A stretch of 37,276 bases of DNA from Candidatus Omnitrophota bacterium (GTDB lineage: Bacteria > Omnitrophota > Gorgyraeia > Zapsychrales > JAHFGK01): contig JAHFGK010000001.1 in the NCBI GenBank assembly GCA_023247475.1, positions 13,230 through 50,505 of the forward strand, given 5' to 3'. The translations under genes were made by a program, and so were the position numbers. The notes under the pieces are model-generated. The model saw only the letters and a list, made by a program, of their open reading frames with translations. It had not been told where the DNA came from and ran no database searches. Positions 3 through 21,556 of the stretch are shown piece by piece. Within the stretch, counting starts at the first letter, position 1; each line of letters opens with the position of its first letter.

Positions 3-1050
3 GAGGATAACCTGCGCGACATTGAGATCACCGATTACCACGGGACTTCCTTTGGCATGTTGATCGAACAATTGGTCAAGGCAGAAAAAGAAACCGGCGG
101 TCAAATCAATGTTTCCGTTTTGAAGGCGTTCCGTAAACATCATTTAAGGGAAGTCTTAGAGAAAGTTAAAGATGAAAGTATTCGAAAGGATATTTTAAAA
201 TCCTTCAATGGAATGTCTTTGAGCCAAGTTAAGGATAAGATCTTGGAGGAAGTGATCAAATCCGATTATGCTTTATATGATGTGGTAGAAAAAGTGGTTC
301 GTAAGGAATTTAATGAAGCCTTTGAAGAAATTCGACGGCAGATCATACTTGAAAAAGGCAATTTGACAACCGATGAAGATATCCGAGAACGTTTGATCTT
401 TGCTTATGAGGCTCGCAAAAACGCCCAACAAGAGGTTCATCAATTTGAACGGGATTTGAATCAATTCGAAAAAGAACAGCCCATTTATCGTAAACGCATT
501 GGCGGTGTGAGCAGCGTCGGTATTGAAACAGGCTATATTAATTGGGTGGGTTCACCAATTTTAAGGAAAGTCAAAATGATGGGCTTAAAGCGTTCTTCGC
601 ATATGGGAGAGACATGGGAGAATGGAGAGTATCTGGCCGTGCTTCGAAGGATCAAACAAGAGATTGAGTTGGATGTGGAACGGTTAGCACATTTAACAGT
701 TTTAGGTCTTGATTTTGATGATCGTAAGAAAATTTTGGGTATCAGTAATAAAGAGAGAGCAGAAGCAAAACAACTGCAAGGTGAAATTTTTGATCTCATT
801 AGGAAAAAAGGCATTCACGTGGAGCTTCAACCCACCAGCCAAATCACGATTTCTCCGGCCTACAGTGATTATAAGGACCATACTGCCACAAGATTTTTCA
901 AAGAAAAAATCAGTATCTCCATCAATCCCGATGACAGCAGTGTCTTTGATACGAACCCGTCCCAAGAATTAGCAGAGATTTGGTTTGCCAATCCCGATAT
1001 TTCCTATGAACAATTGATGTGGACTGTCAATCAAGCCAAAGAGTATCGGT
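3..1050 (+). other. Domain of giant ORF: adenosine/AMP deaminase-like (C-terminal part of barrel)
   Basis: Motifs SHMGE (HAGE), ERLAH (RIGH), VELQPTSQ (EVCPTSN) and ISINPDDSSVFDT (SINTDDP..F.T) occur in the canonical order. Confidence 0.8.
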
Positions 1051-4000
1051 TTTATGAACATCCGGAAGAAGTAAAAAAGCGTTTAACAAAAGAACGTTGG
1101 CGCGTTTGGGAGGCATGTAGAAAATTTGTGTCGGCTGTAGTCGTCTTTGGAAGCGCTCGAATTGCTCGAGGATCCGTCCAATATGAAGTAGGTAAGAATT
1201 TGGGGAGGGCCATCCAGCGCAAAGGTTTAGTCCCGCGCAGCGGCGGGGGACCAGGTCACATGGAAGGTCCCGCGGAGGGCTATGTTTTGGAAAGACAAAA
1301 GACACTTAAGATTATTAAAAAGATGATCGATGCCGTTAAGACGCAGGCGATACGAATTGTTTTACCATTCGAACAGTTCACCAGTAAATTTATGGAGATC
1401 GTTTTTAATTTTAGCCATTTTGTTTTTAGGAAATTAGCTTTGCATTTGAAGAGTCTGGGGATTATTGCTCTGTCTGGCGGGCTGGGAACTTGGGATGAGA
1501 TTATGGAAACTTGGCGGCGGGAGCGGCCGGTGGTGCTTTTAGGGAAAGATTTTTACGAGCCTTTGATTAATGCTTTACGCGAAAGTTGGGAAATGGCCGG
1601 GATGACTGATCAGATTCGAATGTGGCCTGTAATTACGGATTCCATTGATGAAGCCTTGGATAATATGTTGCGATTGTCCCAAGAAGGTTATATTGCCAAA
1701 ACCAATCAGGCTGAAACGAAAATAGCCGTTAAGGAAATGCAGGATGGATTGGATAAATTGAATAAACTGCCTCGTGGAATAGTGATCTTAGGCCATCCTG
1801 CAGATCATCCTTATGGAAGAGAGGTTGTGGGAAGATTTCAAGAAATCCTCTCCGCCATGATGAAAAAGGATATGGCGGTGCGCATTAGCAGTCGTGGCCT
1901 TGTTTTTGATGCAACGTTGGAGATTGCAAGATCCATGCACAAGGAAAATATTTTACAAACAGTTTTGTTTAGATGGAACGGCGATCGGCCTTGGAGTTCG
2001 GAGGAAAATTATTTAGCTGAGAATTTTCCTAATAATACAGTTTTAACCACCGATGATTCGATTCATCAGTTGCTTTTAACTTACGATGCCCGCGGTTATG
2101 TGCTTTTACCCGGAGGTGTGGGGACATTGAATAAATTGTTTGATATCGTGGCAACGATGCAGACAGGAAAGATCCGTCGAAAACCCATTGTTTTGGTTGG
2201 TCGGGAATTCTGGGCGCCGATTTTGAAGAAGATGAAAGAGGTTTTTGAAGGGCACGATCCTCAGGTGATTTCTCCCGGGGATATGGAGCTCGTCAAAATT
2301 GCGGATACGCCTGAAGATGCCTTGCGTATTTTAGGATTAAATCATGATTTCTTAGAAAGAGCACCGCCTCCTTCAGCGTCACCGTCATCACCAGCCCCGG
2401 CTTCCTCGATTTCTTCCACTTCTCCCACCGAGCAAAATCGGAAAATCTATGAAGACATTTATCAGTCGTTTAAAACGAAGGGAATTGATCCCGAGAAGCA
2501 AAATGCTCTCCGTGGGAAATTTGAGAAAGAAGTGGATGGCTCATTAAAACTTATTGATCACAGTAACCTTCCGGTTAAAACCGCTGTACCTGTTGAGACC
2601 AATAGTTATTCGGCCTACATTGGCGCTCCATTGCCAGAAAAAGTAGCTCAGAGATTGCTTCAGATCAGTTCCGATATTCGCTCTATTTTGCCACCGGATT
2701 TGGCCGTTTATCAAGCTGATTTAGATTCCTTGCATATCTCTGTTCAGATCTTGCAGGATTTGGGAATCACGCAGATTTTCGATGATCCTAATAATGAGCT
2801 TACTATTGAAGAACGGCAAGGACTTATCGAAATTTTGCGTGATGTTGTCAACAAAACGAAAGAGTTTGATCTCAAATTAGAAGGGATACGATTCGGGAAC
2901 GACGGAGGAGTCATTGCTGTTCTAACCGATGACGGCTCTTTGTTTAAATTGAGGAAGGAATTTTATGACCGTGCTATTGAGGTGACGCCTAAGATAAAAA
3001 ATAAGCAACCGAAAGTAGTTATACTTATTACTTTGATGCGGATTTTGGATCACGTTGATGATAAGACATTAGCGATTTTAAAACAAAGGGCTGATGAACT
3101 TAAGGATATCACAGTTGAAAATTTGATTTTGCGCGTTGATAGAATCAAAGTTGGACATGAGACACGTTGGATGCATGAGGGAGTCGAAAATGAAGAGATT
3201 ATTCCATTGGCTTCTCAGCAAATTCAAGGGGCAGGCCCTGCTTCCAACAGCAGCGGGGCCGGCATGATTCCGGCTCTGAGTTGGTTGTTGATGAAGATGG
3301 GAATTTTACTGGAACATCAGGCCTGGATCGAGCAGGTGATTTTCTGGATCATCAATCTGTGGTTGATGACGGTCTTCGGCGCGCTTTGGGCAACCGCGAT
3401 CACCTGGTCGACGTTTTTCCTTTTGCATTTTCTGCGCACAAAAAACATGCCCCAGACGCCGCCGTGGCGAGGGATATTATTCATATCTGTTGTCAATACA
3501 CTTCCTTTCTTTTTCCTCTCATTTCAAAGTATTGGATTTCTAATTCTTTTCTTCATTTTTATAACAGCTATACATCATCTTCTTAATCTCGTTTATTTAC
3601 CTTCCGAAGAAATTGCAAGATTGCCTAAAGAAATTCGGACTAAGCAGAGTTTAGAAATCGTCTGGCTCTCTGCTTTAAAAGATTGGGATTCCTCCGATAG
3701 GAATGAGTTGCTGGGTGCCAAGGCCGCAAATTTAGAAGAATTGATGAATATCCCAGGGATTAAGGTGCCGAAAGGATTTGTAATCTCAACGGCTGTATTT
3801 GATCGTTATTTAAAGTCCATCCATTTGGAAGAATCGATTGCTGATTTAGAGAGATTGTCCAGTTTGCGCAAGAGTTTATCCAAGGCACACGAATTTATTA
3901 GTTATTTTTTTGAGGGAATATTGAAATTAACTATTGTTGCAAAAATATTATCTGAAATCTGGAGAATATTTTCTGGCATGATACGGATTGATGCTGATTT

Positions 4001-7000
4001 GGCCGAGATTGCTAAAAATATAAAGGAAAGGATAATTTCCGGACATTTAAGGGAAGATCTTCGCGTTTCCATTATTGCCGCTTATCAACAGTTAAGCTCA
4101 AAAAACAAAGATATGCTGGTAGCGGTTCGTTCCTCCGCAACGGCTGAAGATATGCCCCATGCTTCTTTTGCCGGTCAATATAAGACATATCTCAATCAAA
4201 TAGGTGAGGAACAAGTTATAGAAGCTGTAAAGAATGTATGGGCATCTACTTATAATATTAATGTTATCAATTATCGTAATGAGAATAATATTCCGCATGG
4301 TAAAACTAAAATGGCTGTTTTAATTCTCGAAATGATTGATGCCCAATCAGCAGGTACTGCCTTCTCTGTAGATCCCGAAACAGGATTTCCCATGGTCAGT
4401 ATTAATAATACTTACGGTCTTGGTGAAATTGAAGTGTCCGGGAATGTTACTCCAGATACATGGCTTGTTGACTCAGAAACAGAAACAATTCTTAAGCGCC
4501 GGTTGGGTGAAAAGCGAGTTAGGTTTGCTTACGACCCCCGAAAGAAGACAAATGTTATAGTTCAAAATTCGGCGGAAGAGCAGAGTCGATTTGCTATGGG
4601 GTCTAGGGAAGCCAGACAAATTGCTTCTCAACTCAGGGTTATCGATAAATATTACAAGAGCAGAATGAAAGATATTAAATATATTGAAACCGAATATGCA
4701 ATAACAAAGGATGGTGAAGTTATTTTCACCCAAGCGAGAGCCGAAACAGTTTGGAGTAGAGGGAAATCATTATTGGTTGCTATCGACAAGAAAGCTGCCA
4801 AGGATTTTCCTTTAATACTGGAGGGTGGCATTACAGGATCGGTGGGAGTGGCGACTGGAATTGTCCGCATTGTTTACTCAGTTGAAGACGCTGATAAAAA
4901 AATAAGGCCAGGAGATATCATGGTCGCCCCAAATACAACCAGTGTATGGGAACGTGCGATGGGATTGGCTGCAGGTATGGTTACTGAAATCGGCGGACCT
5001 GGGAATCATACAGCTGTTGTTTCTCGGGAACAAGGCAAGCCGGCGATCGTAGGAAATTCTAATGCGATAAATGTATTAAAACAATATGAGGGTCGAACAA
5101 TAACAATTGATGCTGTATTTAAACGAGTTTATTTAGGAAAAGTACATGCGTCCTGTTTTTATCGACCCGATCAAATACCAGCCCATTATCTAGGTCTCGA
5201 TAGTGTAACCGAGGAGGAACATTGGAACGGTGCTAAACAAGGCAGACAAACAATTGAAGACGGTGATGGAAAAAGATGGATTGGGAAACCTAACGAGCCC
5301 ACAAGTTTTTTCTTACAAAACATTCATGATAAAAGCCACGACTGGGTAGCTAGAGTTGCCAGTTTAAGTCCTATTGAGGAAGGGCAGGACAGAATTCAAG
5401 GAAAAATATATCAGGTTGATTTTAAAAATATTCATAAATGGCGGGAAGAATTCAGAAACAAGCGAATTGAGGAATTGGAAAGTCTATATCAGGAGTGGGT
5501 TGAAATTATTGACCATTATCTACGAGTAAGTAGGGAACTTGAATTATCAAGTGAATCTATAAGAGAGTGGATTGATGCATTTATGAAGCTTAACGGGATC
5601 ATGAATGTTTCATTCCCATTTAATGAAGTTGTAACAGGATTACTTGAACAGGAATTACAGGACAGAAAATTGAAAGAACCATATTTTTCATGGTTGCATT
5701 CTTCATTAAACAGCTCATTTTGCGGGACATTAAAAATGGAAGCTGATAGGGTCTATGGAGAACTTTTGGATGAATTAAGAAAACGACGATCTTCTATTAC
5801 CCATGCGCTTCAACGTGTGGCTCAAGATGGAAAATATACGGAAGAATTCTTAAACGACCAGAACCACAGAAGATTTCTGAGACAGCTCGAGAAATATGCA
5901 AAGAATTTCAGGGTTACCAGCGAATTTGCGTTAAGCTTAACTGCCACATGGCCTTTACAGAAAGTTGCACAAGATTTAGTCAGTGATCTCGAGAGCGGGA
6001 GAAGGATAAATATCCCTGAACAGATAATGGAAGAATATTATCCGGAAGATCAGGAATTTAACAGAATCTTTCGGTTGGCTGCATTATCCGCGAAATTAAA
6101 GCAAGATTCTCATCACATAAAATTCCGCGGGCAATGGAAATTTATGGAAAAAATTCAACCTTTAGAGGAATTCCTTATGCAAAAAAGGGAAATTGGCACC
6201 GTTGAAGAAATCTTCGACCATAAGCCGGAATGGCTGGTGGAGAAGATAATTGAATATGAAAAAACAGACGCTTTAAAAAATTTACTTCTCAAAGAATACT
6301 TAAATATGAGGCCGTATAAAACCTATCCGTTGCATCCTAAGGAATTGGATATAAGTTTAAAATTCTTGCCGATTGAAGGTGCTTTAGAAGAAATAAAGGA
6401 AATTTTGCTGGAAAGACACGTTGATCCCAATCGAATTGATAATTTGACAATGGGTTATGAGCGGGCGTGGGCATTTATTCGTAATCGCTACCCACATCAA
6501 AAAGAGAGATTGAGTAAATTAAAAATTCGGATCTCCAACAGGAAGGTATCAAAATTAGAGCCCCAAAAAGATATTTTACCTCTTGAGTATGAAGACTTAA
6601 AAAACAGCGATTATGTTACTCAAAAATTCCTAAGGGCTTTTGATTGGCATGCTGTTAGGCCGAATGAATCAATACAAAAGGCGGTTGAGGCATTATTTTT
6701 GGATATTGAAGAAGTTCTGTTTTTCTTGAGTCTGTCCCCGGATCGACAAAATAACTACTTGCAGTCAATGTTAAGGAAAAAATTTTATAAGGTTTTAAAA
6801 AGCATTGGAGAAGAAAATGAAAACGAGATCGCTGATCCCATTTTCCAATATGCCCGGCAAGCAAAGGAATATTCTGATTTTTCCTTAACGCGGTCATGGC
6901 AGAAGGATGAAAGACTACATGAGCTTATGGAGATTTTTGCCGAAAATCTCATTTATTTGAAATCATTGTGGAAGAACAAATATCCAAGCAAAAGTTTATA

Positions 7001-10000
7001 TGAATTTTATGGTTCCTTAATCGAAGAATCTCAAAAAACCGGAATATCACCAACCGTGATCGTGATTGGTGTAATTAATTTAAATAGAATAGAGAATACC
7101 ATTGATAACTTCTTATTAAGAAGGCGATATCAAATTTCGTTTGAAAAGACACCCGCCGATTATATTTTCATTGGGGGAGGAGGATTCAATTCGGGTACTA
7201 TCGGCAGAAGCCTACGCTGGGTCAAGGAGCATGAAGAGAATGATTTTGATGATCGATGTCATTGTAGCGTAAACATAACATCTACCTGGGATAGAGGCGG
7301 TTCATCACAAAAGGATGCCGATGCAGTCAGGGGCAGATACAAAACTCACGTATTGTCGCCGGGAGACATTATGACAGTTCTGTCTTTCCAGACCATTACT
7401 GATACCAATTGGTTTTCGAAGGAAGATCCAGAAAATTTGTGGGAATCGGATGATAAGCCCGAAAATAGTGAAGCTGTTAAGGATCTAATTTATACCTACA
7501 AAAATCGTCTTACTGTCCCTGAGGACCATACTTTTGAGGAAGTGATTGAAAAGAGGATACAGGAAGTTTATAAAAATGAAAATTTAATAAAACCCGATAA
7601 TTGGCAAGAGTTTGTAGTTAACTTAAGGGGAGCAGCCAGATTTGTTGACAGAGAATTGATTAGCAAAGGGTATTTGCAGGGTATCAGAGAGCAGGTGACC
7701 AGTGTACAAAATTTATTATTATTAGCATTGATTATTGCTTTTAATCCTGACTACAAAAAGGGTGAAAAACTTAATGCGACACACGCCTCTCGAGAGATTC
7801 ATTATATCCTAGGATTAAAAAGGATTTTTGCTCTGCCTGCTAGTTTTGAAGATGCGGTTTCCGCGATGAAATTAGAAGGCAGGGATCGGAAAGGAGAGAT
7901 AGTTAAGGAGATTGTCGGTCACTTGAATTTTGCTAATGAAAAAGAGGAGTATAAAATTGTTGAAGGGAAAGATTCCTATGAGGCAATACCATATCAGCTG
8001 GTCCTCAAGGAAACAGAGGATTCAAAAGCCGTAAGTAATCAAGATTTGAACCGTAATCGATTCCCTAAGGCGAATCCAGACGCTGTGAATGCAATTAAAA
8101 ATGCGAAAAGGGCTCTTATTATGGGGATGAGTAGCCCATTTGACAGCACTTTAGTTAATTTAATGCCGGTAGAAATAGTTGAAGAGATGGAAAAGAAAGT
8201 ATTGCAATGGAGAAAAAATGAGGGTGCGGGAGTCATGTCCTTTTATTTCCCTAAAGTTATTACAGAATTACAGATGGAAAAATTAAGTTTAAAGGAAATC
8301 TTTTTGTTAATGGAACGCTCTATTCAGGCCGCACAAGGAAGACCTGATTTTAGCATTGAGAATATTATTACGCATGTTTTTATGCCTAATGTCCCACAAA
8401 AGGTGTGGAGCATATATCTTGCGAAGTTAAAAAAGTCTAAGAGATATCTATTAAATGAATCTGGACAAGCGGAATTGGATAAAGTGGCGATCGGGGATCG
8501 TGATGTATTCGATCAAGTAAAGGCCATATTTTTTAATAAAAATTATTGGAGTAAAAAGGCACAGGAAGGAATAGAGGATGGGAGAATTAAGATAACGAAA
8601 ATGATTCCAGGAGTTCCTTTTATTTTTACAGATGAAGATCAAAACTTTTTAGAGAGTCGCGGAATTGAAGTTGTGGATGCTAGTCGCGAAGATCATGAAA
8701 AGCTATATCGTATATGGGAAGAAAGAGTTGTCTACAACACCAATCAAGTTGCACGTATTCTTAATCGAGTTATCAAGAAAAATGACCAGTCCAGCACTAC
8801 AATGCTTGATTCGAAATTGGTTAACGAAATTGTTCGGGTCGCCGGAGAGTCAATTAGGTCTTTCTTAAAAGACTTGGATCCCCATAGTGAGAATATTACG
8901 AATTCACAATTCTCCGATATCGCCCGATTCAATAATTTATGGGAAGCAGTTAGAAGATTTAAAAAAGAAGGACCGACAAGTTTTTCTAATGAGAAATTAC
9001 TTGCAGCAAAAACAGCCATCCCACGAATTGAGCTGAGAGGACGGCGAGAGAATGGTCAAGCTGCCCAAGTTGCCATAATCGGAGTGCCGGGTGTTTATAG
9101 AGCCAGAGTCATATCTTCATTCGATGAAATGATTAGAATGCATGGCTTAAATTTCAAGCCCGGAGGCGTAATGACGATCGAGGTTAATAGGGCGGGTGTC
9201 AATAAGGCTTTACCTATAGAATATCTTGGTAACCATTTTGATGAGATTCTGAAGCAGATGGAGTATACACCAGGTCATTTGATCAATTCCAGTAAAACTC
9301 GCACGGTCATCATCACCGATGCTGATGGAACCATTTACGGAAATCCGACAAAGGACCGAAATCCGTCATTAAGTGAAAGTCCTGTTCGACAAGTTTTGGA
9401 AGAATATTTGCAGGCAGGAGGAATCCTTGTTATTGATAGTGGAAATGATTTGGAGTTAACGGCAAAACGTTTGTTAGATCACGATGCGATTCCTCCTCGT
9501 TTACGCCATCGAATTATCATTGCCGCCAATGGTGGGACTAATATGGCCAGGTTGACCTCAGAAGGAAAAATGGTGGAAATTCTTGACTATGATCAAAATG
9601 CACTTAAAAAACATTTTTCACAAGATCGACATAAAGTTATTGAAGAATTAGATGCTGTTTATCTTGGAGACGATGCAAGCAAAGAGGGAAATGATTTTCC
9701 CAGTTATCGGAAAATGGGGTTCCACCGCTCTTTAACTGTAACGAGCGATGAGTGGGAGAACATTCCGGATGAGCTTAAAGCCAACTACATCGGTGGTTTA
9801 GAACAGGGGACAAGGATCTTTTTAGAAAGAGTAGTCGCGGCCGCAAAATTGAAACCCTATCAAAAATTATTTAATGTGCCCGGGCTCCGAACTACTATTG
9901 AGGGGACATGTAATGCCTTGACAGTTTTAGATAATGAAGAATTAAGAGAGATTATGAAGCAATTTACGAGGCATATGAATAATCGGGAAGTGGATGGGCA

Positions 10001-13000
10001 AAAGAGTTCACTGCCCATGATGCCTGCTTTCATTAAAGCGGCCACAGGAGGAGAATCGGGAGAGTTTCTTGGGGTGGATTGGGGAGGAAGCAATCTGAGG
10101 GTTATGCTTGTGCAATTAAGTCCTGGGAGAAAGCCAAAAATTGTAAAAAGCAGTAAACTAAAATTCAGTGATCAACATAAAAACGGCATTATCAATCCCT
10201 TTGAGACTATTGCCCAAGTGATTAAAAGTTTTAACCTAGACCCTGGTAAGAGGTATGGTCTGGGATTCACTTTTTCACAGCCTGTTGAGCAAAAGAGCCT
10301 TATATCAGCAATATTATGGAAATGGGTCAAGGGATGGAATATCAAAGACGTTGTGGGCAAAGATGTCAGTCAGCTTTTGCAAACAGCTCTTGAGAGCAAT
10401 GGGCTTAATGTTGAAGTGCGAGCCTTGGTAAATGACGTCGTAGCGACACACTTGGCAGTTCCCCATGCAGATATAGGGTTGGTTTTAGGGACAGGGTTTA
10501 CTTTTTCCATGCTCGGAGACGATGGTGAAATCATTAATACAGAAGGGGGTGCGTTTATTTACAACGGGCTACCCCAAACCATTTTTGACCGTGATATTTA
10601 TCAAAATATGGATCCACTCAATGAGCATGCCTTCGAGAAAATGGTTTCTGGAGCATATCTTGGCAAGATTCTTCGTATGCAATTAAGAGCATTGAGGGTC
10701 CAGGGTAAGTTTATGAATGAATATGACAAGGTATCATTTATTGATGAACCTCAAAAACTTCAGGTAGAGGAATTTAAAAATGGTGATGCTAGAGAATTCA
10801 TTGCGGCATTAACTGCCGATATACAAACAAAGCTAAAACACGATTTGCCGAAAATTGAGTCTCCAAGAAAAATGTTGGATTGGATTATCCAGGGCCCTGT
10901 TATCTTTGAGTTATTTGATCATTATAAATATGAATCCTTTTTGAGCGAAGCCGGATTAAAACTTTTTCACAAGATTAAAGCCTCATATAATGTGGCATCA
11001 TTGTCGGCATTAGCACACAATCAGGTTTCCCAATTAACAAGCACTCCGGATGGGCAGAAAATGCAAAGGATTATATTGGACTTAATTTATGCCGACAAAA
11101 TGCCCCAAGATAGCCCTGATATTTTAATGACCAAGTTAATCAGCTTAATTGAAAGTTATGATAACTTGGAAAGCCTTCGTGTTGCATTAGGAGGAGATGA
11201 GCAATTTGCAATATTGTACGGGATATCAAATCGAGACTTGAGAACATTGAAGCAATTGAGTAAAGATATTTCAAGACGAGCCGGGCGTTTGCTTGCCGCG
11301 GAACTCCTTGCGGCTATAGAAAAAAATGATCCTCAATTATCGAAGAATCATATAGTGGCTGTTGATGGGAGTGTTTATGAAAAACACCCCCAAATGCGTC
11401 AGTATATTCATGAAGGTATTGCTCAGTTACGAGGACTAAATATTAATGATCAAGGTGGACAGATTGAATTTGTTTTTGCCGAGGATGCAACCTTAATTGG
11501 AGCGGCAATTGTAGCAGCAGTGGCAGAACAAAAATTAAGTATAAAACAAAAGGAGGCATCTAGATTAAACTCTGGCGCAGGCATGATTCCGGCGTTGAGC
11601 TGGGCGTTGACGAAAATGGGAATTTCGCTTAAGCATCAGGCCTGGATCGAGCAAGTGATTTTTTGGCTCATCAATCTGTGGTTGATGACGGTCTTTCATA
11701 GTTTGCTGGCAACCGCGATCACCTGGTCGGCGTTTTTCCTCCTTCACTTTCTCCGCACCCAAAACGTGCCGCAGGCCCCGCCGTGGAAGTGGATAGTGTT
11801 CATTGCCATCATCAATGCTTTTGCCTTATGCTTCACTCCTCTTTCTTTTATAAAAATGTTGATTCTCAACTTTATCCTAGCAACTCTTATCCATCATATT
11901 CTCAATTTGAATAAGATGGTGATAACTTGGTACAAGCCTTACGTCCAAACACGATTATCCGAATTGCCTTTAGATGAGCGGGGCACGTTGATTCATAAAA
12001 TTTGGGAATCGATAGAATACGATGCTAATAATCCGCTCATCACTCAAATCGCTCATTTCTCCAAAAGGGGTGTTAAAAAAGAAACATTAAAAAGATTGAT
12101 TGATTTTCTAATGAGCATAGGTGCGGATGTCGCTAATCCGTGGGTCATTAGTTTCCGGTCGGAAACAGTTCTAACCAAAATGGCCTCGCATTTGTTAGAT
12201 GAACCTTCCAATTTATCTGATATTGAGGGTGATAGGAAATTTTTAGATATTAAGGTTTCTGAGCCGTTAGTAGAACCCGATCTTTCTTTACGAGCGGATA
12301 TTTCTCTTCAAGAAATGAAAGACAGTTATCATCGGTTGTTGGATTATCAGAAATCATGGATATTGTCCGGGCGTGGTTTTCTCGAAATTGCCCATCAAGT
12401 TCGTTGTAGCGGTAACAAATTTGCCGAGAATGTGATAAGAATCCTATTGTCAAGGGTCTGGGAAGAACTAAGGATATCTCCTCAAGCAGATGCGTTTTTA
12501 TTTTTTGCTGATATCAAAACCTTTGCTTCAGATATTGATTGGGTTTACTGGGGACCGATGATTGATGAGGTCAATGTCAGACTGGCTTCTTATCTACAGT
12601 TAGTTGGGTTTAATCCTGATTTGTTGGGATCAATGCTTTTGACCGAAGAAATAAGACAGGGGCGAGTCGGTCATACTCTCATTCAGTCTTTTGCCAACGG
12701 AACGGTGATTGAAATGAATCAGGGAAATTTTAACGATTTTTATCGAATGGTCATTAGGCCTAATGCGGATTTAAACAATGTTTGGTTGGAAGCTCACCGG
12801 AAATTATCGCGCCGGTTGGCCACATGGAACAGAACAACTTTGCAGCCATTCCGCTCCTTTAGAATCAGTGATTTTAAGAAACTTCAGCACCGGACTGTAA
12901 CAACGCTCCTTTTCGGTTTGGCGCGGAAATTTAATATCCCATTCGGCCCGAGTTGGGAAGATTTGTTTGAGCAATTGAAGCGATTTCTGTCGGAATCGGA

Positions 13001-15314
13001 TATTGTTTTCTTAAGAGAAGCTCTTTCTTTCATCGATCAAGAGCGTAATATTTATCAAATGATCAGTCAAATAAGAAAAGAGGTAGTGACCGGCAAAGAT
13101 CTGGAAAAAATCCGCGTCGTTTTTGCCAGGCAAGGGTTGACGGATTATGAAGCGCATTTGCGGAAAATGGGACAGAGACTCGAAACGATGCGGCAGGAAT
13201 TTTTCGGCGCTCCCGATTTCGGAAAAATTATTGATAGTTCACCTTTCCGCGATGAACGAAGGATTAACGCTTTGATTCCTACCGCCCGAGGATATAAAGA
13301 AATGCACTTTTTGAATATTCAAAAAGCAAAAGCGATTTGTGATCTTACAAATTGTTTAGACCAGTTGGCTGGTTATGCTGTCTCAGAACGAGGAAAGGTT
13401 CGGGAATTTGTCAGAAAATTGGAATGTCTTTTCCCCTGTGGAAGATTCTTAGAGTTCGGTGTTCATAAGATAGATCCCCAAATGATTGCTCGCTTAACCA
13501 ATTGCGGCGCTATTAACAATGAAAATGTTTTATTTAATGATACGGAGCCCATAGCCATTTTGTTATCCCAAGGACGGTTTGGCTTGATTAGTACAGCCGC
13601 GACATCGATTCAATTGATAACAAGTGTGGCAGAAAGAGAGGAGCGGTGGAGAAGTTTTGTTGGTATTGCTCTCCATGAGGCAGAGAAAATTTCTGAAGAA
13701 AAGGGGGAGCAAAAGGGATTTTCCCCCGAAAACGGTGAGCTTATTATTCTCCGACATGGAGAAACGGTATTAAATAATCGTGAACTGGTTTTATCAGCGG
13801 AGGGTATTGCGGATCTGAAAATTTCGGCCCATGCCTTAAAGCAAATTTATGGAAGGGATGGTATTGAAGAGTCGGTTGTTTCTGCTTCACAACGCATGAT
13901 CCATACTTTGGGCATTGTCATCGATCGGCTGAGGCCGGCTACGATGGACATATCAGTTCACAAGGCGATCAATGGTTCCAATCGAGGTCCGTTCACAAAA
14001 ATTCCCTATGAATCGTTAAAAGAGGAAATAGCCGTGCGGATACAGAATTTATGGCAGTTTTATCCTAAATTAAGAGAAGCTGCCGATGAAGTGATTTCTA
14101 AAGAAGTTGTTCACCGATGGTTCTATCCAACGCCTGCCATAAAACGCTTTGCCATCTCAGAATCAGCTCGTATGAAAGCGCAAAGGTTATTTGAGCAATG
14201 GAAATTAGTACAAGTCAGACCCGCTCCTGATGAACGGGGATTCTCCGAAGATTATCGAGAGGTGCAATCTCGCGTTGTCCCTTATTTTGAAAAAATTATC
14301 CGACCTAAAATCATGAGAGGGAAGAAAATTCTAATGGTCCTTTCGCGGAATGTTTTTGGTTGTTTGGCCGCGGACTTATTTGGTTTAACCTATAATGAAC
14401 TCACTCATATTCCCAATCCCAAAGCTATACCTATCCGAGTTTTATTCAAGAAAGATGGATCAGTGGAGAAGGTGGAATTTATTTTGAACACTGACGAAGA
14501 TTCTTTTTCAAAAAAGAGATTAGAAAATTTTGTTAAAATTTTAGAAAATAAACTTATCCCCTATACATATAGAAAATTGAGAAATGGCGCCGGCCCCACT
14601 TCCGAAAGCAGCTGGGGAGCTCCTGCTGAACCTAGCGGCGCAGGCATGATTCCCGTTATGAGTTGGATTTTGCTGAAGTTGGGAATTTCGCTCAAACACC
14701 AGGCCTGGATCGAGCAAATAATTTTCTGGCTCATTAATCTGTGGCTGATGACGGTATTTGGTGCGTTTTGGGCAACCGTGCTCACCTGGTCGACGTTTTT
14801 CCTCCTTCACTTTCTCCGCACCCAAAATATGCCCCAGGCCCCGCCGTGGGGTTGGATTGCGCTAATCGCTCTTGCCAATGCGATTCCCCTCTTTTTCCTA
14901 TCATTTTTAAATATCGTAATTCTAATTTCTGTATTCTTTTCTGTCACTGCTATTCATCACATTCTGAATCTTAAGGTCGATATAATAACTGGAGATAATA
15001 AGGGGAAATTAAACCGACTCCCCAAACTTCATCCGGACGGGATTGGGGTGAATGAGGGGTTGCTGGAAATTAAAGACGAGGATGGAACTCCCGCGGGAGA
15101 ATTTATCGCGCTTAACGTTGGGCCGGGATTCGCTTTGCATCAATCGATTATTTTCTCACTGCTTCGTGCTAAGAATATTTTTGACCGTTACTGGCAAGTG
15201 GATCCCGCAAGAGCGAAAGCCGATGTCATTGTGAGGACGGAGGATGATCGGGATTTCGCTCCTCGGGCACGAAGGAAAGGTTACCAGCAGAAATTACGGA
15301 GTGTTGAGAAATAA
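3..15314 (+). CDS. Giant multidomain membrane-anchored multi-enzyme protein (>5,100 aa, 5'-truncated)
   Basis: The ORF track gives 57..15314, but the frame is open from base 3 (EDNLRDIEITDYHGTSFGM...) and begins inside a deaminase fold, so the true start is upstream. It contains about 10 recognisable enzyme domains and 3 repeated TM cassettes. Confidence 0.93.
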   Translation, partial: EDNLRDIEITDYHGTSFGMLIEQLVKAEKETGGQINVSVLKAFRKHHLREVLEKVKDESIRKDILKSFNGMSLSQVKDKILEEVIKSDYALYDVVEKVVRKEFNEAFEEIRRQIILEKGNLTTDEDIRERLIFAYEARKNAQQEVHQFERDLNQFEKEQPIYRKRIGGVSSVGIETGYINWVGSPILRKVKMMGLKRSSHMGETWENGEYLAVLRRIKQEIELDVERLAHLTVLGLDFDDRKKILGISNKERAEAKQLQGEIFDLIRKKGIHVELQPTSQITISPAYSDYKDHTATRFFKEKISISINPDDSSVFDTNPSQELAEIWFANPDISYEQLMWTVNQAKEYRFYEHPEEVKKRLTKERWRVWEACRKFVSAVVVFGSARIARGSVQYEVGKNLGRAIQRKGLVPRSGGGPGHMEGPAEGYVLERQKTLKIIKKMIDAVKTQAIRIVLPFEQFTSKFMEIVFNFSHFVFRKLALHLKSLGIIALSGGLGTWDEIMETWRRERPVVLLGKDFYEPLINALRESWEMAGMTDQIRMWPVITDSIDEALDNMLRLSQEGYIAKTNQAETKIAVKEMQDGLDKLNKLPRGIVILGHPADHPYGREVVGRFQEILSAMMKKDMAVRISSRGLVFDATLEIARSMHKENILQTVLFRWNGDRPWSSEENYLAENFPNNTVLTTDDSIHQLLLTYDARGYVLLPGGVGTLNKLFDIVATMQTGKIRRKPIVLVGREFWAPILKKMKEVFEGHDPQVISPGDMELVKIADTPEDALRILGLNHDFLERAPPPSASPSSPAPASSISSTSPTEQNRKIYEDIYQSFKTKGIDPEKQNALRGKFEKEVDGSLKLIDHSNLPVKTAVPVETNSYSAYIGAPLPEKVAQRLLQISSDIRSILPPDLAVYQADLDSLHISVQILQDLGITQIFDDPNNELTIEERQGLIEILRDVVNKTKEFDLKLEGIRFGNDGGVIAVLTDDGSLFKLRKEFYDRAIEVTPKIKNKQPKVVILITLMRILDHVDDKTLAILKQRADELKDITVENLILRVDRIKVGHETRWMHEGVENEEIIPLASQQIQGAGPASNSSGAGMIPALSWLLMKMGILLEHQAWIEQVIFWIINLWLMTVFGALWATAITWSTFFLLHFLRTKNMPQTPPWRGILFISVVNTLPFFFLSFQSIGFLILFFIFITAIHHLLNLVYLPSEEIARLPKEIRTKQSLEIVWLSALKDWDSSDRNELLGAKAANLEELMNIPGIKVPKGFVISTAVFDRYLKSIHLEESIADLERLSSLRKSLSKAHEFISYFFEGILKLTIVAKILSEIWRIFSGMIRIDADLAEIAKNIKERIISGHLREDLRVSIIAAYQQLSSKNKDMLVAVRSSATAEDMPHASFAGQYKTYLNQIGEEQVIEAVKNVWASTYNINVINYRNENNIPHGKTKMAVLILEMIDAQSAGTAFSVDPETGFPMVSINNTYGLGEIEVSGNVTPDTWLVDSETETILKRRLGEKRVRFAYDPRKKTNVIVQNSAEEQSRFAMGSREARQIASQLRVIDKYYKSRMKDIKYIETEYAITKDGEVIFTQARAETVWSRGKSLLVAIDKKAAKDFPLILEGGITGSVGVATGIVRIVYSVEDADKKIRPGDIMVAPNTTSVWERAMGLAAGMVTEIGGPGNHTAVVSREQGKPAIVGNSNAINVLKQYEGRTITIDAVFKRVYLGKVHASCFYRPDQIPAHYLGLDSVTEEEHWNGAKQGRQTIEDGDGKRWIGKPNEPTSFFLQNIHDKSHDWVARVASLSPIEEGQDRIQGKIYQVDFKNIHKWREEFRNKRIEELESLYQEWVEIIDHYLRVSRELELSSESIREWIDAFMKLNGIMNVSFPFNEVVTGLLEQELQDRKLKEPYFSWLHSSLNSSFCGTLKMEADRVYGELLDELRKRRSSITHALQRVAQDGKYTEEFLNDQNHRRFLRQLEKYAKNFRVTSEFALSLTATWPLQKVAQDLVSDLESGRRINIPEQIMEEYYPEDQEFNRIFRLAALSAKLKQDSHHIKFRGQWKFMEKIQPLEEFLMQKREIGTVEEIFDHKPEWLVEKIIEYEKTDALKNLLLKEYLNMRPYKTYPLHPKELDISLKFLPIEGALEEIKEILLERHVDPNRIDNLTMGYERAWAFIRNRYPHQKERLSKLKIRISNRKVSKLEPQKDILPLEYEDLKNSDYVTQKFLRAFDWHAVRPNESIQKAVEALFLDIEEVLFFLSLSPDRQNNYLQSMLRKKFYKVLKSIGEENENEIADPIFQYARQAKEYSDFSLTRSWQKDERLHELMEIFAENLIYLKSLWKNKYPSKSLYEFYGSLIEESQKTGISPTVIVIGVINLNRIENTIDNFLLRRRYQISFEKTPADYIFIGGGGFNSGTIGRSLRWVKEHEENDFDDRCHCSVNITSTWDRGGSSQKDADAVRGRYKTHVLSPGDIMTVLSFQTITDTNWFSKEDPENLWESDDKPENSEAVKDLIYTYKNRLTVPEDHTFEEVIEKRIQEVYKNENLIKPDNWQEFVVNLRGAARFVDRELISKGYLQGIREQVTSVQNLLLLALIIAFNPDYKKGEKLNATHASREIHYILGLKRIFALPASFEDAVSAMKLEGRDRKGEIVKEIVGHLNFANEKEEYKIVEGKDSYEAIPYQLVLKETEDSKAVSNQDLNRNRFPKANPDAVNAIKNAKRALIMGMSSPFDSTLVNLMPVEIVEEMEKKVLQWRKNEGAGVMSFYFPKVITELQMEKLSLKEIFLLMERSIQAAQGRPDFSIENIITHVFMPNVPQKVWSIYLAKLKKSKRYLLNESGQAELDKVAIGDRDVFDQVKAIFFNKNYWSKKAQEGIEDGRIKITKMIPGVPFIFTDEDQNFLESRGIEVVDASREDHEKLYRIWEERVVYNTNQVARILNRVIKKNDQSSTTMLDSKLVNEIVRVAGESIRSFLKDLDPHSENITNSQFSDIARFNNLWEAVRRFKKEGPTSFSNEKLLAAKTAIPRIELRGRRENGQAAQVAIIGVPGVYRARVISSFDEMIRMHGLNFKPGGVMTIEVNRAGVNKALPIEYLGNHFDEILKQMEYTPGHLINSSKTRTVIITDADGTIYGNPTKDRNPSLSESPVRQVLEEYLQAGGILVIDSGNDLELTAKRLLDHDAIPPRLRHRIIIAANGGTNMARLTSEGKMVEILDYDQNALKKHFSQDRHKVIEELDAVYLGDDASKEGNDFPSYRKMGFHRSLTVTSDEWENIPDELKANYIGGLEQGTRIFLERVVAAAKLKPYQKLFNVPGLRTTIEGTCNALTVLDNEELREIMKQFTRHMNNREVDGQKSSLPMMPAFIKAATGGESGEFLGVDWGGSNLRVMLVQLSPGRKPKIVKSSKLKFSDQHKNGIINPFETIAQVIKSFNLDPGKRYGLGFTFSQPVEQKSLISAILWKWVKGWNIKDVVGKDVSQLLQTALESNGLNVEVRALVNDVVATHLAVPHADIGLVLGTGFTFSMLGDDGEIINTEGGAFIYNGLPQTIFDRDIYQNMDPLNEHAFEKMVSGAYLGKILRMQLRALRVQGKFMNEYDKVSFIDEPQKLQVEEFKNGDAREFIAALTADIQTKLKHDLPKIESPRKMLDWIIQGPVIFELFDHYKYESFLSEAGLKLFHKIKASYNVASLSALAHNQVSQLTSTPDGQKMQRIILDLIYADKMPQDSPDILMTKLISLIESYDNLESLRVALGGDEQFAILYGISNRDLRTLKQLSKDISRRAGRLLAAELLAAIEKNDPQLSKNHIVAVDGSVYEKHPQMRQYIHEGIAQLRGLNINDQGGQIEFVFAEDATLIGAAIVAAVAEQKLSIKQKEASRLNSGAGMIPALSWALTKMGISLKHQAWIEQVIFWLINLWLMTVFHSLLATAITWSAFFLLHFLRTQNVPQAPPWKWIVFIAIINAFALCFTPLSFIKMLILNFILATLIHHILNLNKMVITWYKPYVQTRLSELPLDERGTLIHKIWESIEYDANNPLITQIAHFSKRGVKKETLKRLIDFLMSIGADVANPWVISFRSETVLTKMASHLLDEPSNLSDIEGDRKFLDIKVSEPLVEPDLSLRADISLQEMKDSYHRLLDYQKSWILSGRGFLEIAHQVRCSGNKFAENVIRILLSRVWEELRISPQADAFLFFADIKTFASDIDWVYWGPMIDEVNVRLASYLQLVGFNPDLLGSMLLTEEIRQGRVGHTLIQSFANGTVIEMNQGNFNDFYRMVIRPNADLNNVWLEAHRKLSRRLATWNRTTLQPFRSFRISDFKKLQHRTVTTLLFGLARKFNIPFGPSWEDLFEQLKRFLSESDIVFLREALSFIDQERNIYQMISQIRKEVVTGKDLEKIRVVFARQGLTDYEAHLRKMGQRLETMRQEFFGAPDFGKIIDSSPFRDERRINALIPTARGYKEMHFLNIQKAKAICDLTNCLDQLAGYAVSERGKVREFVRKLECLFPCGRFLEFGVHKIDPQMIARLTNCGAINNENVLFNDTEPIAILLSQGRFGLISTAATSIQLITSVAEREERWRSFVGIALHEAEKISEEKGEQKGFSPENGELIILRHGETVLNNRELVLSAEGIADLKISAHALKQIYGRDGIEESVVSASQRMIHTLGIVIDRLRPATMDISVHKAINGSNRGPFTKIPYESLKEEIAVRIQNLWQFYPKLREAADEVISKEVVHRWFYPTPAIKRFAISESARMKAQRLFEQWKLVQVRPAPDERGFSEDYREVQSRVVPYFEKIIRPKIMRGKKILMVLSRNVFGCLAADLFGLTYNELTHIPNPKAIPIRVLFKKDGSVEKVEFILNTDEDSFSKKRLENFVKILENKLIPYTYRKLRNGAGPTSESSWGAPAEPSGAGMIPVMSWILLKLGISLKHQAWIEQIIFWLINLWLMTVFGAFWATVLTWSTFFLLHFLRTQNMPQAPPWGWIALIALANAIPLFFLSFLNIVILISVFFSVTAIHHILNLKVDIITGDNKGKLNRLPKLHPDGIGVNEGLLEIKDEDGTPAGEFIALNVGPGFALHQSIIFSLLRAKNIFDRYWQVDPARAKADVIVRTEDDRDFAPRARRKGYQQKLRSVEK
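1125..2340 (+). other. Domains of giant ORF: two tandem LOG/SLOG (nucleotide phosphoribohydrolase) domains
   Basis: Copy 1 has VVVFGSAR, SGGGPGHME, LPFEQ, FVFRK and SGGLGTWDE. Copy 2 has LLPGGVGTLNKLFD and KPIVLVGREFW. Confidence 0.85.
2600..3210 (+). other. Domain of giant ORF: 2H phosphoesterase (LigT-like), second His motif degenerate
   Basis: SLHISVQ (HxS) followed about 95 aa later by VILITLMR where HxT is expected; FDLKLEGIRF..DGGVI strand pattern in between. Confidence 0.6.
3252..3590 (+). repeat. TM cassette copy 1 (CPBP/Abi-like, about 4 TM)
   Basis: SGAGMIP...HQAWIEQVIFW...FFLLHFLRT...QTPPW...AIHHLLNL; 327 nt from ATG 3264 to the end. Confidence 0.9.
3690..5140 (+). other. Domains of giant ORF: PEP-synthase/PPDK-type ATP-grasp plus phospho-His swivel domain
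   Basis: LLGAKAANL, VPKGFVIST, AVRSSATAEDMPHASFAGQY, FTQARAETVW, then GGPGNHTAVVSREQGKPAIVG (His codon at 5007). Confidence 0.9.
7155..8780 (+). other. Domain of giant ORF: YvcK/CofD-like nucleotide-binding domain
   Basis: IFIGGGG, ITSTWDRGGSS, SPGDI and ANPDAVNAIKNA..LIMGMSSPFDSTLVNL match YvcK GGGTG / DDGGSS / PGDIR / P.A..AI..AD.I..GPGS..TS...NL. Confidence 0.7.
9300..9840 (+). other. Domain of giant ORF: HAD-superfamily phosphatase (IIB-like)
   Basis: IITDADGT (motif I), IDSGN (motif II), YLGDD...GNDF (motif IV). Confidence 0.8.
9920..11530 (+). other. Domain of giant ORF: hexokinase with a large insertion
   Basis: FLGVDWGGSNLRV, LGFTFSQP, WVKGW, LVNDVVAT, GLVLGTG, INTEGGAF, FEKMVSGAYLG, VAVDGSVYEKHP, EDATLIGAA. 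Confidence 0.93.
11571..11909 (+). repeat. TM cassette copy 2
   Basis: SGAGMIPALSW...HQAWIEQVIFW...FFLLHFLRT...QAPPW...LIHHILNL; 327 nt from ATG 11583. Confidence 0.9.
12300..13200 (+). other. Domain of giant ORF: GlnD/GlnE-like nucleotidyltransferase plus helical substrate-binding domain (possibly degenerate)
   Basis: FASDIDWVYW (SDxD), later SDFKKLQHR and LREALSFIDQERN resembling DLK..GLR / L.EA..FL..LRN. The usual G[S/G] loop before SDxD is absent. Confidence 0.5.
13735..14485 (+). other. Domain of giant ORF: histidine phosphatase / phosphoglycerate-mutase-like
   Basis: LIILRHGET, LSAEG, SASQRMIHT, SEDYREVQSRV, KILMVLSRN (second His not conserved). Confidence 0.8.
14634..14972 (+). repeat. 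TM cassette copy 3
   Basis: SGAGMIPVMSW...HQAWIEQIIFW...FFLLHFLRT...QAPPW...AIHHILNL; 327 nt from ATG 14646. Confidence 0.9.
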
Positions 15315-18822: not shown

Positions 18823-18834
18823 GGTTTTTATTTG

Positions 18835-18895
18835 CACAGATGATCACAGATGTAATATCTGCGATCATCTGTGTTTAAATCAGCGATCATCTGCG
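18835..18895. repeat. 17-nt palindromic repeat cluster (CACAGATGATCACAGAT family) at the mutS-mutL junction
   Basis: cacagatgatcacagat 18835-18851 pairs 16/17 with atctgcgatcatctgtg 18857-18873; a third unit at 18879-18895 overlaps the mutS stop. Confidence 0.85.
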
Positions 18896-21450: not shown

Positions 21451-21470
21451 GGGTACTATAGGGATTTTTT

Positions 21471-21556
21471 CACAGATGATCACTGATTAGAAGATACTGA
21501 TGAACACAGACATTTTATCTGCGATCATCCATCCCTTTTATCTGCGATTATCTGCG
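21471..21556. repeat. Same 17-nt repeat family upstream of mutS (two direct plus two inverted units)
   Basis: cacagatgatcactgat 21471, tactgatgaacacagac 21495, atctgcgatcatcc 21517, atctgcgattatctgcg 21540. Confidence 0.82.

Follow-up and report, generated by a model that had tools for sequence, protein, structure and literature searches.

What a bacterium might do with about ten nucleotide- and sugar-phosphate enzymes strung together in a single polypeptide is the question raised by a stretch of 37,276 nucleotides (nt) from a Candidatus Omnitrophota bacterium (GenBank assembly GCA_023247475.1, contig JAHFGK010000001.1, positions 13,230 to 50,505 of the forward strand), hereafter the window. 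An open reading frame (ORF) at its very start had been interpreted from the sequence alone as such a chain, acting either as an effector or scavenging array that drains or reroutes the nucleotide and carbon pools of a host, or as a membrane-tethered metabolon (the sequence-only reading). Here, we report that this ORF is the C-terminal part of a much longer gene that is divided by two families of repeated membrane modules, and we lean, with some reserve, towards the view that it encodes a membrane-stapled mosaic of salvage enzymes facing the cytoplasm.

The window part of the gene is a single open frame of 5,103 codons followed by a TAA stop and open at its 5′ end, which confirms that the enzymes lie in one giant multi-enzyme ORF. 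Its start directly adjoins a run of 44 N (contig 13186-13229), before which a second frame on the same strand is open at both ends (contig 3-13184, 4,394 codons; hereafter L001). Since the two frames are offset by one base across the N-run, 44 N is not the true length of the gap. Continuity was examined by synteny, using the first 370 residues of the window ORF as a query against 400 other genomes of the phylum. Matches were obtained in six of these genomes, all of them inside long ORFs of 1,866 to 38,333 amino acids (aa). Five of the loci were fetched, one of which has just 271 nt upstream and falls outside the test; in the other four of the five, a homologue of the upstream tail (~190 residues) ends exactly four codons before the homologue of the window start, in the same frame and without a stop. 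From this conserved junction, it follows that the gene comprises at least 4,394 + ~4 + 5,103, i.e. ~9,501, codons. A giant gene of at least this length with ~20 domains, whose 5′ end is cut off by the contig start, is thus confirmed, and the extent of 3..15314 originally given to it has to be enlarged by the 4,394 codons across the gap.

Altogether, 9,497 residues of the giant ORF can be read from both frames. The other 275 contigs of the assembly have no 21-, 31- or 55-mer in common with the first 200 bases of the contig. A single contig (C6) is open in one frame throughout and was considered as the missing upstream piece, but by eye it is a fragment of RNA polymerase beta′. No other ORF of more than 1,725 aa is present in the rest of the assembly (276 contigs, 90.7% complete).

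For a gene of this size, chimeric joining of several genes during assembly, via repeats or the scaffold gap, has to be weighed. The stretch is present in four groundwater metagenome runs of one study, at ~4x depth and in fragmented Logan contigs, none of which bridges the N-run. In addition, the contig graph branches at copies of the type I module described below, namely at copy 3 (contig 12276-12541), and one loose end coincides exactly with copy 1 (L001 4300-4329). Against such an artefact, 5,103 and 4,394 stop-free codons at ~40% G+C are not expected by chance, the gap junction recurs in four other genomes, and the copies of the type II module, being 72-78% identical in DNA, are not collapsible repeats, so that we regard a chimera as very improbable.

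The organization of the chain became apparent from its comparison with itself, which revealed two repeat families: type I, with three copies upstream of the window, and type II, with three copies inside it. The latter correspond to the three transmembrane (TM) blocks that had been seen in the sequence ahead of a short tail, both of which are borne out. Type I modules span ~140 aa and end in a helical hairpin of two hydrophobic helices, while type II modules of 113 aa consist of four TM helices plus a short N-terminal helix; an hhalign comparison of the two families gave P 0.12. Type II copies are ~69% identical in protein sequence; for copies 2 and 3 of type I, identity amounts to 81-91% at the protein and 90% at the DNA level. 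By the Nei-Gojobori method, the ratio of nonsynonymous to synonymous substitutions (dN/dS) is 0.19, 0.22 and 0.27 between type II copies (dS 0.75-1.25); the pair of type I copies 2 and 3 has a ratio of 0.33, and dS ranges from 0.28 to 1.25 over these comparisons. Judging from these ratios, the membrane modules are old duplications held under purifying constraint.

Type II modules are also found outside this genome. A profile of the three copies matched 32 of 1.84 billion representative proteins at E<=1e-3; 24 of the 32 bearers exceed 1,000 aa, the longest having 7,615 aa; five copies occur in one bearer and three in another, and the same three-row alignment retrieved two loci in a related-locus search. 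Fourteen bearers were short enough to be scanned, of which four contain no Pfam family and ten contain families that vary by protein, comprising glycine-cleavage GcvP/H, glutamate dehydrogenase, aromatic-amino-acid lyase, amino-acid kinase, helicases, UDPGP, GNAT and PPDK_N. As the cargo differs among bearers, the type II module can be viewed as a portable part of long multi-enzyme proteins.

An AlphaFold2 model of type II, built from a 25-row alignment, has a predicted local distance difference test score (pLDDT) of 92.0 and a predicted template modelling score (pTM) of 0.85, with helices at positions 7-15, 20-42, 44-58, 72-88 and 94-112. Positive charges are located N-terminal to the first of the long helices and within the 59-72 loop. 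Because every module has an even number of helices, the chain would re-emerge on the same side of the membrane after each of them, and these flank and central-loop charges would, by the positive-inside rule, place the type II ends in the cytoplasm. The even helix counts, the charges and the presence of enzymes of ATP-, FAD- and NAD-type would thus locate every cassette behind the first module at the cytoplasmic face.

This topology bears on the proposal that the chain is an exported or injected array of effectors, the enzymes of which drain the nucleotide and sugar-phosphate pools of a host. The available parts of two preprints connect giant proteins of Omnitrophota with predation and predict a signal peptide (SP) together with TM helices for many of them (West-Roberts et al. 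2023, bioRxiv 10.1101/2023.11.21.568195; Nielsen and Lui 2026, bioRxiv 10.64898/2026.06.07.730766). Moreover, a dockerin/GLUG protein is encoded next door, and hexokinase, adenosine deaminase (ADA) and LOG activities could deplete host metabolites. Yet, modules with even helix numbers would hold the chain in the membrane of its producer, the cofactor needs of the enzymes suit the cytoplasm, and domain scans found no secretion, adhesion or cell-wall-degrading domains in the 9,497 residues. An effector array thus appears improbable, and the corresponding part of the sequence-only reading gains no support from the domain content, the N-terminus lying beyond the contig; its alternative of a membrane-tethered multi-enzyme protein, on the other hand, fits the even-helix modules that divide the chain.

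A further question is whether the modules only anchor the chain or also cut it. The 25 rows of the type II alignment comprise the three copies of this ORF and one sequence each from 22 other proteins; excluded were eight rows covering fewer than 100 profile positions, P0002 (equal to copy 3), P0013 (a near-duplicate of P0012) and P0010 (the end of which lacks the last motif, HxxxN). Residues P7, Q23, E27, F55, H59 and H108 are invariant in the 25 rows and Q28, W52, P70, N82 and N112 nearly so, with N112 occurring in at least 90% of them. The result is an E...FxxxH...HxxxN pattern, with spacings of 32 residues from E to H and 49 from H to H, and the conserved residues cluster near the same helix end of the model. 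Membrane proteases of the CPBP/Rce1 type have an FxxxH motif and a residue spacing that resemble the type II order, and Rce1 has eight helices. The giant protein might hence be a self-processing polyprotein, in which the modules act as reduced intramembrane proteases of the CPBP/Rce1 type and, with sites that face the cytoplasm, split the chain into enzymes of cassette size, either membrane-anchored or free.

Several observations are in keeping with self-processing. The CPBP motifs EExxxR and HxxxN are assigned to TM4 and TM7 in the available part of a published account (PMC11980579), and type II resembles the family (PF02517) in its four-helix core and in the presence of E, FxxxH and HxxxN in the same order and at similar spacing. 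When type II was aligned with 28 CPBP domains of related genomes by hhalign, the three motifs fell into register (P 0.095), and type I aligned with CPBP at P 0.002 and a probability of 13.8%, with the FLED/LLEE and HxxxN motifs matched. Canonical CPBP domains occur inside ORFs of 8,045, 53,549, 82,151 and 85,816 aa in four genomes of the same order, and cleavage of giant proteins, in that case by C39 and S8 domains, has already been proposed, as stated in the available part of West-Roberts et al. (2023). However, formal CPBP tests of the modules, whether by Pfam, PDB profile, hhalign or Foldseek, all fell short of significance: the PF02517 hidden Markov model (HMM) matched none of the six modules at E<=10 and just two other loci of the genome at E<=1, a PDB profile search with type II returned no match, Foldseek with the type II model reached a best E of 6.5, and Foldseek as well as VIA-align found generic helical bundles only. 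Type II is furthermore only 113 aa long and departs from the EExxxR motif in that the invariant E27 is followed by Q28 instead of a second Glu, and the Arg is absent. Since the motif order is CPBP-like but the formal tests fall short, we retain the protease as a rival explanation, albeit an unlikely one, and do not place the module in PF02517.

Between the modules lies the enzymatic cargo (Table 1), for which domain calls were made from Pfam, NCBIfam and PDB comparisons; residue numbers refer to the window frame unless L001 is stated. ADA, the two LOG domains and hexokinase, as named by the sequence-only reading, all hold up. The C-terminal part of the deaminase-like domain is related to ADA structures over aa 260-350 (E 5e-4), whereas its N-terminal part precedes the gap (L001 aa ~4196-4394). 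Neither Pfam nor PDB detects anything in this N-half; the block is conserved across the gap in four genomes, and the pre-gap stretch contains the sequence PKSVLHEH, which we take to be the motif of the deaminase N-half. The hexokinase is of eukaryotic type and exceeds the cut-offs of both Pfam domains (PF00349 and PF03727; 139.7 and 117.7 bits, E 1.4e-40 and 7e-34). It aligns with HK1 in the PDB at E 1.6e-72, and the catalytic Asp and the glucose and ATP motifs are matched (lvnd/vvnd, dwggsn/dlggss and vdgsvyekhp/vdgslykthp). An insert of ~175 aa splits its large domain (window 10700-11230, aa ~3570-3745; query residues 270-445 unaligned to HK1).

Other calls stood in part. The PEP (phosphoenolpyruvate)-synthase-like region contains the ATP-grasp part (PPDK_N, 276 bits) and the mobile domain with its phospho-His motif kept, but the C-terminal PEP/pyruvate TIM barrel (PEP-utilizers_C) was not found, and NCBIfam alignments end at model position 467 of 798. 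The YvcK/CofD assignment is marginal, as the segment scores 18 bits against a Pfam cut-off of 30 (PF01933, UPF0052), although all four PDB matches of a three-sequence profile are UPF0052 structures (E 0.004-0.6); no homologue of the segment was found among the 248-790-aa proteins of a word-indexed collection. The HAD-like segment is, to judge from its homologues, a genuine conserved unit, while its placement in the HAD family is weak. The 2H and NTase-like calls found no support: the former segment yields 2_5_RNA_ligase2 at E 0.21 in Pfam and no PDB relative, and the latter has no Pfam or PDB profile match, being distinguished by an invariant S-D-x-D motif alone, with 924- and 930-aa homologues that are likewise without a significant Pfam match (one row at E 0.085). 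Conserved unit U1 has no Pfam match either. A DGG tripeptide was considered as a junction mark between domains and discarded, as it occurs once in the 9,497 residues.

Table 1. Features of the giant gene and of the operon nested within it. Positions are nucleotides of the window, with residues of the window frame in brackets, or refer to the upstream frame L001 where stated.
Feature	Position	Strand	Basis or remark
Region of ~1,350 residues without family	L001 N-terminal region	+	Pfam scan
hicB (69 aa) and hicA (75 aa) operon	L001 1512-1945	-	PF15919 32.6 bits; PF07927 63.3 bits; ATGA overlap
Type I module, copy 1	L001 aa 1378-1527	+	internal repeat
GlpD-like FAD oxidoreductase	L001 aa 1567-2005	+	domain scan
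DUF1537 kinase, SBD_N + NBD_C	L001 aa 2127-2548	+	domain scan
PdxA	L001 aa ~2560-3080	+	domain scan
Type I module, copy 2	L001 aa 3105-3241	+	internal repeat
FkbH	L001 aa 3453-3782	+	NCBIfam 277 bits, cut-off 147; followed by unclassified segment
Type I module, copy 3	L001 aa 4047-4183	+	internal repeat; followed by N-part of deaminase block
Giant ORF, C-terminal part	3..15314	+	5,103 codons + stop; upstream continuation contig 3-13184 across 44 N
Adenosine/AMP-deaminase-like domain, C-terminal two thirds, large insert	3..1052	+	Pfam A_deaminase aa 195-350, 31.5 bits (cut-off 27)
LOG/SLOG domain 1	1134..1667 (aa 378-555)	+	GGGPGHM and GTWDE motifs; Pfam, PDB LOG alignment
LOG domain 2, degenerate	1800..2342 (aa ~600-780)	+	Pfam Lysine_decarbox 59.7 bits
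Unclassified ~225-aa segment, Pro/Ser-rich linker ahead	2445..3122	+	former 2H call
Type II module, copy 1	3252..3590 (aa 1084-1196)	+	internal repeat, TM
PEP-synthase-like N-half	3705..5114	+	ATP-grasp PPDK_N aa 1235-1588; phospho-His swivel aa 1635-1704
Conserved unit U1	5160..6332 (aa 1720-2110)	+	recurs in 23,032-aa ORF and others
CofD/YvcK-like unit with insertions	6906..8744 (aa 2302-2914)	+	GGGG, D-x-GGSS and G-x-x-SPFDS motifs; marginal
HAD-like unit	8796..9902 (aa ~2932-3300)	+	stand-alone homologue ORFs; NCBIfam HAD-IIIC E 0.0012 (weak)
Eukaryote-type hexokinase	9924..11522 (aa 3308-3840)	+	both Pfam domains, PDB HK1; motifs aligned
Type II module, copy 2	11571..11909 (aa 3857-3969)	+	internal repeat, TM
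~460-aa domain with invariant S-D-x-D..Y-x-G-P motif	11925..13322 (aa 3975-4440)	+	homologues in ORFs of 924, 930 and 2,841 aa
Histidine-phosphatase (dPGM-like)	13740..14498 (aa 4580-4832)	+	His_Phos_1 37.6 bits; PDB dPGM E 5e-8
Type II module, copy 3	14634..14972 (aa 4878-4990)	+	internal repeat, TM
C-terminal tail, 113 aa	14973..15311	+	no assigned family; after type II copy 3

The modules divide this cargo into cassettes, some of which recur elsewhere. The deaminase-LOG-LOG block of ~980 aa, which extends from just after type I copy 3 to the end of the second LOG domain, is 37-47% identical in ORFs of 2,169, 38,333 and 4,858 aa (two genomes of the same order and one from the same phylum only), and in a fourth genome (35,884-aa ORF), the deaminase part alone is in common. 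The rest of the 9,497 residues has no match to these block-bearing proteins at E<=1e-5. Similarly, the HAD-like unit, as a query against 40 other genomes of the order, found matches in four, consisting of stand-alone ORFs of 347 and 356 aa in two genomes, a segment of a 16,749-aa ORF in a third and a weak match to another stretch in the fourth. One genome of the order has U1 and the CofD-like unit in collinear arrangement; in ORFs of 23,032 and 12,948 aa, the two units are separated or rearranged. On the level of sequence, this pattern suggests that pre-formed cassettes are exchanged among giant genes.

The earlier statement that the enzymes do not form one pathway seems too strong, for their predicted functions cohere within cassettes. 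By analogy with characterized relatives, the GlpD-like oxidoreductase, the DUF1537 kinase and PdxA would all lead toward dihydroxyacetone phosphate (DHAP), and the deaminase and LOG of one cassette would both act on purine nucleosides or nucleotides. Zhang et al. reportedly described in 2016 a pair of DUF1537 kinase and PdxA2 in acid-sugar catabolism that yields DHAP from C4 acid sugars. The giant chain resembles such pairs in that a kinase with SBD_N and NBD_C is directly followed by a PdxA-family dehydrogenase; it differs in that both are fused into one chain beside a GlpD-like oxidoreductase, and their NCBIfam scores are far under the equivalog cut-offs (105 vs 450 and 136 vs 290), so substrates are not assigned.

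The sequence-only reading had also asked whether stand-alone copies of the enzymes exist or whether the domains are the sole housekeeping copies of the organism, and here the answer depends on the domain. Hexokinase is encoded only in the giant ORF and PF02685 glucokinase is absent from the genome, but two ROK kinases (315 and 309 aa) are encoded there as stand-alone proteins; among the 40 other genomes of the order, hexokinase is patchy and found in two, in ORFs of 1,298 and 1,861 aa. PPDK_N has paralogues on four other contigs, LOG, GlpD-like and PdxA have paralogues elsewhere in the genome, and His_Phos_1 is also present on contig C145. By this inventory, hexokinase and the domain types with paralogues elsewhere are accessory copies rather than the only ones of the organism. 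A_deaminase, DUF1537 and FkbH, in contrast, are found in the giant ORF only, within a 90.7%-complete genome.

Taken together, the somewhat favoured interpretation is that of a membrane-stapled, cytoplasm-facing mosaic of salvage enzymes. The two module families would divide the chain and, through their even helix numbers, bring it back to the same side each time, thus presenting a first cassette of the GlpD-like oxidoreductase, DUF1537 acid-sugar kinase and PdxA-like dehydrogenase, a second of FkbH and an unclassified segment, a third of the deaminase-like domain, LOG, degenerate LOG and an unclassified segment, a fourth of the PEP-synthase N-half, U1, CofD/YvcK-like unit, HAD-like unit and hexokinase, and a fifth of the S-D-x-D domain and the His-phosphatase-like domain. 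At the cytoplasmic face, the cassettes would reach ATP, FAD and NAD-type cofactors and, if catalytically active, could turn nucleosides, nucleotides, glycerol-phosphate, C4 acid sugars and hexoses obtained by scavenging into phosphorylated intermediates of central metabolism. Such a salvage array might sit beside the uptake systems of a small-genome, host-dependent bacterium, presumably as one uncleaved chain, and the gene itself may have been assembled by shuffling ready-made cassettes among giant genes.

A number of points weigh against this interpretation. Its topology is derived from helix counts, a hydropathy scan and the positive-inside rule, and with the N-terminus beyond the contig start, an export signal is possible; indeed, a 147-kaa (thousand aa) 'metabolic' giant is predicted to have SP and TM helices with its enzymes outside, as given in the available part of Nielsen and Lui (2026, bioRxiv 10.64898/2026.06.07.730766). 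Exact words are common to the type I copies, and the upstream order of cassettes therefore depends on how the assembler resolved these repeats. About 40% of the giant chain has no assigned family, and no RNA run is listed among the runs that contain the stretch. In the second LOG domain, moreover, the motif PGGVGTLNK aligns to PGGFGTLDE of solved LOG structures, and catalysis looks impaired. In the His-phosphatase domain, the family HMM and the retained RHG motif uphold the earlier call, but Ser stands in place of the second catalytic His, the ahgn of dPGM being aligned with lsrn.

The loss of aligned catalytic residues in these two domains, along with a PEP-synthase part that has no substrate barrel, could also point to a largely non-catalytic scaffold or sensor, in which many of the enzyme-like domains would bind ligands or have a regulatory role at the membrane. 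SLOG domains are ligand sensors, which would fit such a role. In addition, a regulatory Pfam module has been described in these giants, as far as the available text goes (Nielsen and Lui 2026). The family motifs of hexokinase, the first LOG domain, the deaminase C-part, the phospho-His domain and FkbH are, however, kept in the alignments, and we judge it improbable that the chain is for the most part catalytically silent.

Upstream of the first type I module, a different type of coding was encountered. When the first 1,353 residues of L001 were compared with the 400 other genomes of the phylum, matches were obtained in 28 of them, in 23 of which the match falls at L001 aa ~498-722, the site of an antisense hicBA toxin-antitoxin operon (Table 1). 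Both hicA and hicB score above their Pfam cut-offs, the cassette is present in a single copy in this genome, and Rfam found nothing meaningful over the region. In 11 of the 23, the matching frame is shorter than 340 aa, and 10 of these short frames contain 1 to 11 stop codons; the remaining 12 matches lie in stop-free frames of 1,470 to 35,884 codons. Across hicBA, the giant frame contains no stop, compared with seven and nine in the other two frames of that strand. The same was seen in four loci fetched from other genomes, in which a giant ORF spans the whole 3.5-kb locus and runs antisense to a hicBA pair that is 62-73% identical to the present one: no stop is found in the giant frame and 3 to 16 in the other two, and the hic genes are intact save for one stop in one hicA. 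DNA likeness among the five cassettes is limited to ~480 nt, the flanks being unrelated, and none of 36 other minus-strand ORFs of at least 60 aa inside the giant ORF has a Pfam match at E<=0.001.

That stops are absent time and again across hicBA speaks for selection to keep the giant frame open and provides independent support for its translation. By the same token, a hydrophobic peak at L001 aa 639-657 falls on the antisense of the hicB start and may not represent a true membrane helix. With its small hicB/hicA operon, ATGA overlap and scores above the Pfam cut-offs, the pair resembles HicAB type II operons, but it differs in lying antisense within a giant ORF that is open across it, here and in four other genomes. 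We see an even balance of arguments for the idea that giant genes are safe harbours for a mobile hicBA cassette of ~480 nt that is read on both strands, with the giant frame kept stop-free, a linker of ~145 residues translated from the antisense of hicBA, and the cassette either stabilizing the giant gene against loss or regulating it by antisense transcription. No description of hicBA antisense inside a giant ORF was found in the available part of Nielsen and Lui (2026) or in a brief literature search. Two other features of the family-free upstream region were noted. A zinc-protease-like HELGH (HExxH) motif is present near the start of the contig (L001 aa ~82-86, nt ~246-260), in a segment with no Pfam match at E<=1, and L001 aa ~136-455 form a conserved unit with homologues in five of the 400 genomes compared, where they belong to ORFs of 1,761 to 11,476 aa.

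Some genes that follow the giant ORF in the window were also noted. Beside its 3′ end, a 464-aa protein with matches to dockerin, GLUG and the N-terminal part of M26 peptidases is encoded on the opposite strand (window 15521-16915, minus); dockerin proteins are described in the literature as recurrent companions of Omnitrophota giants. Next is an ordinary mutL-mutS pair (window 17029-21483, minus), the MutS of which is 43% identical to that of a Planctomycetia-labelled bin bearing a relative of the type II module. Further downstream, Pfam found nothing at E<=0.001 in a protein of 534 aa (33088-34692, minus) or in one of 802 aa (34870-37275, plus), the ORF of which runs off the window.

How does the gene compare with known giants? 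It belongs to a kind that is already catalogued, i.e. the multi-enzyme, TM-anchored giants of Omnitrophota (West-Roberts et al. 2023, Nielsen and Lui 2026), and the catalogues of both preprints may already list the protein or its modules. Going by the available part of Nielsen and Lui (2026), it is closest to the TM-only 'multi-enzyme metabolic clusters' of their class 1, in which many enzyme Pfams tile one chain with none dominant, TM helices are scattered along the chain (~2% of residues), sugar-kinase, HAD, PPDK and hexokinase domains are part of the content, and a unique sequence goes along with a recurrent type of architecture. In line with this, 12 Pfam families exceed their cut-offs in the giant ORF, to which NCBIfam adds FkbH; the highest copy number is two (LOG). 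The same source sets its catalogue threshold at 10,000 aa, compared with the at least ~9,501 aa of this 5′-truncated ORF, and defines TM-only as TM helices without a signal peptide, whereas here TM modules are present and the N-terminus lies outside the contig. The 'Archaeovorin'-type and dockerin-type giants, as presented in the available part of West-Roberts et al. (2023), are likewise giant and multi-TM with glycolytic and PPDK-type domains, and cleavage into several products has been proposed for them, but they differ in their SecA-DEAD, C39, S8, dockerin and carbohydrate-binding content, which was not found in the giant ORF. Hexokinase, deaminase and CPBP are not mentioned in that part of West-Roberts et al. 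(2023), nor are module-bounded cassettes, cassette-level recurrence, cleavage, CPBP or antisense toxin-antitoxin genes in the corresponding part of Nielsen and Lui (2026). To the picture of these giants, the present gene adds a grammar of cassettes and modules, indications that cassettes are exchanged, enzymes that are accessory copies, and a hicBA operon nested in the giant frame.

For the biology of these bacteria, the analysis resolves an unwieldy giant protein into testable units, namely cassettes bounded by two conserved families of membrane modules, which supply constructs for asking whether giants act as one membrane-bound chain or as cut pieces. Whole cassettes such as ADA-LOG-LOG appear to move between giant genes, and at least one type of enzyme, hexokinase, is accessory. 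Finally, the antisense hicBA operon constitutes an independent argument for selection on the giant frame and a rare candidate for true gene-within-gene coding in bacteria.

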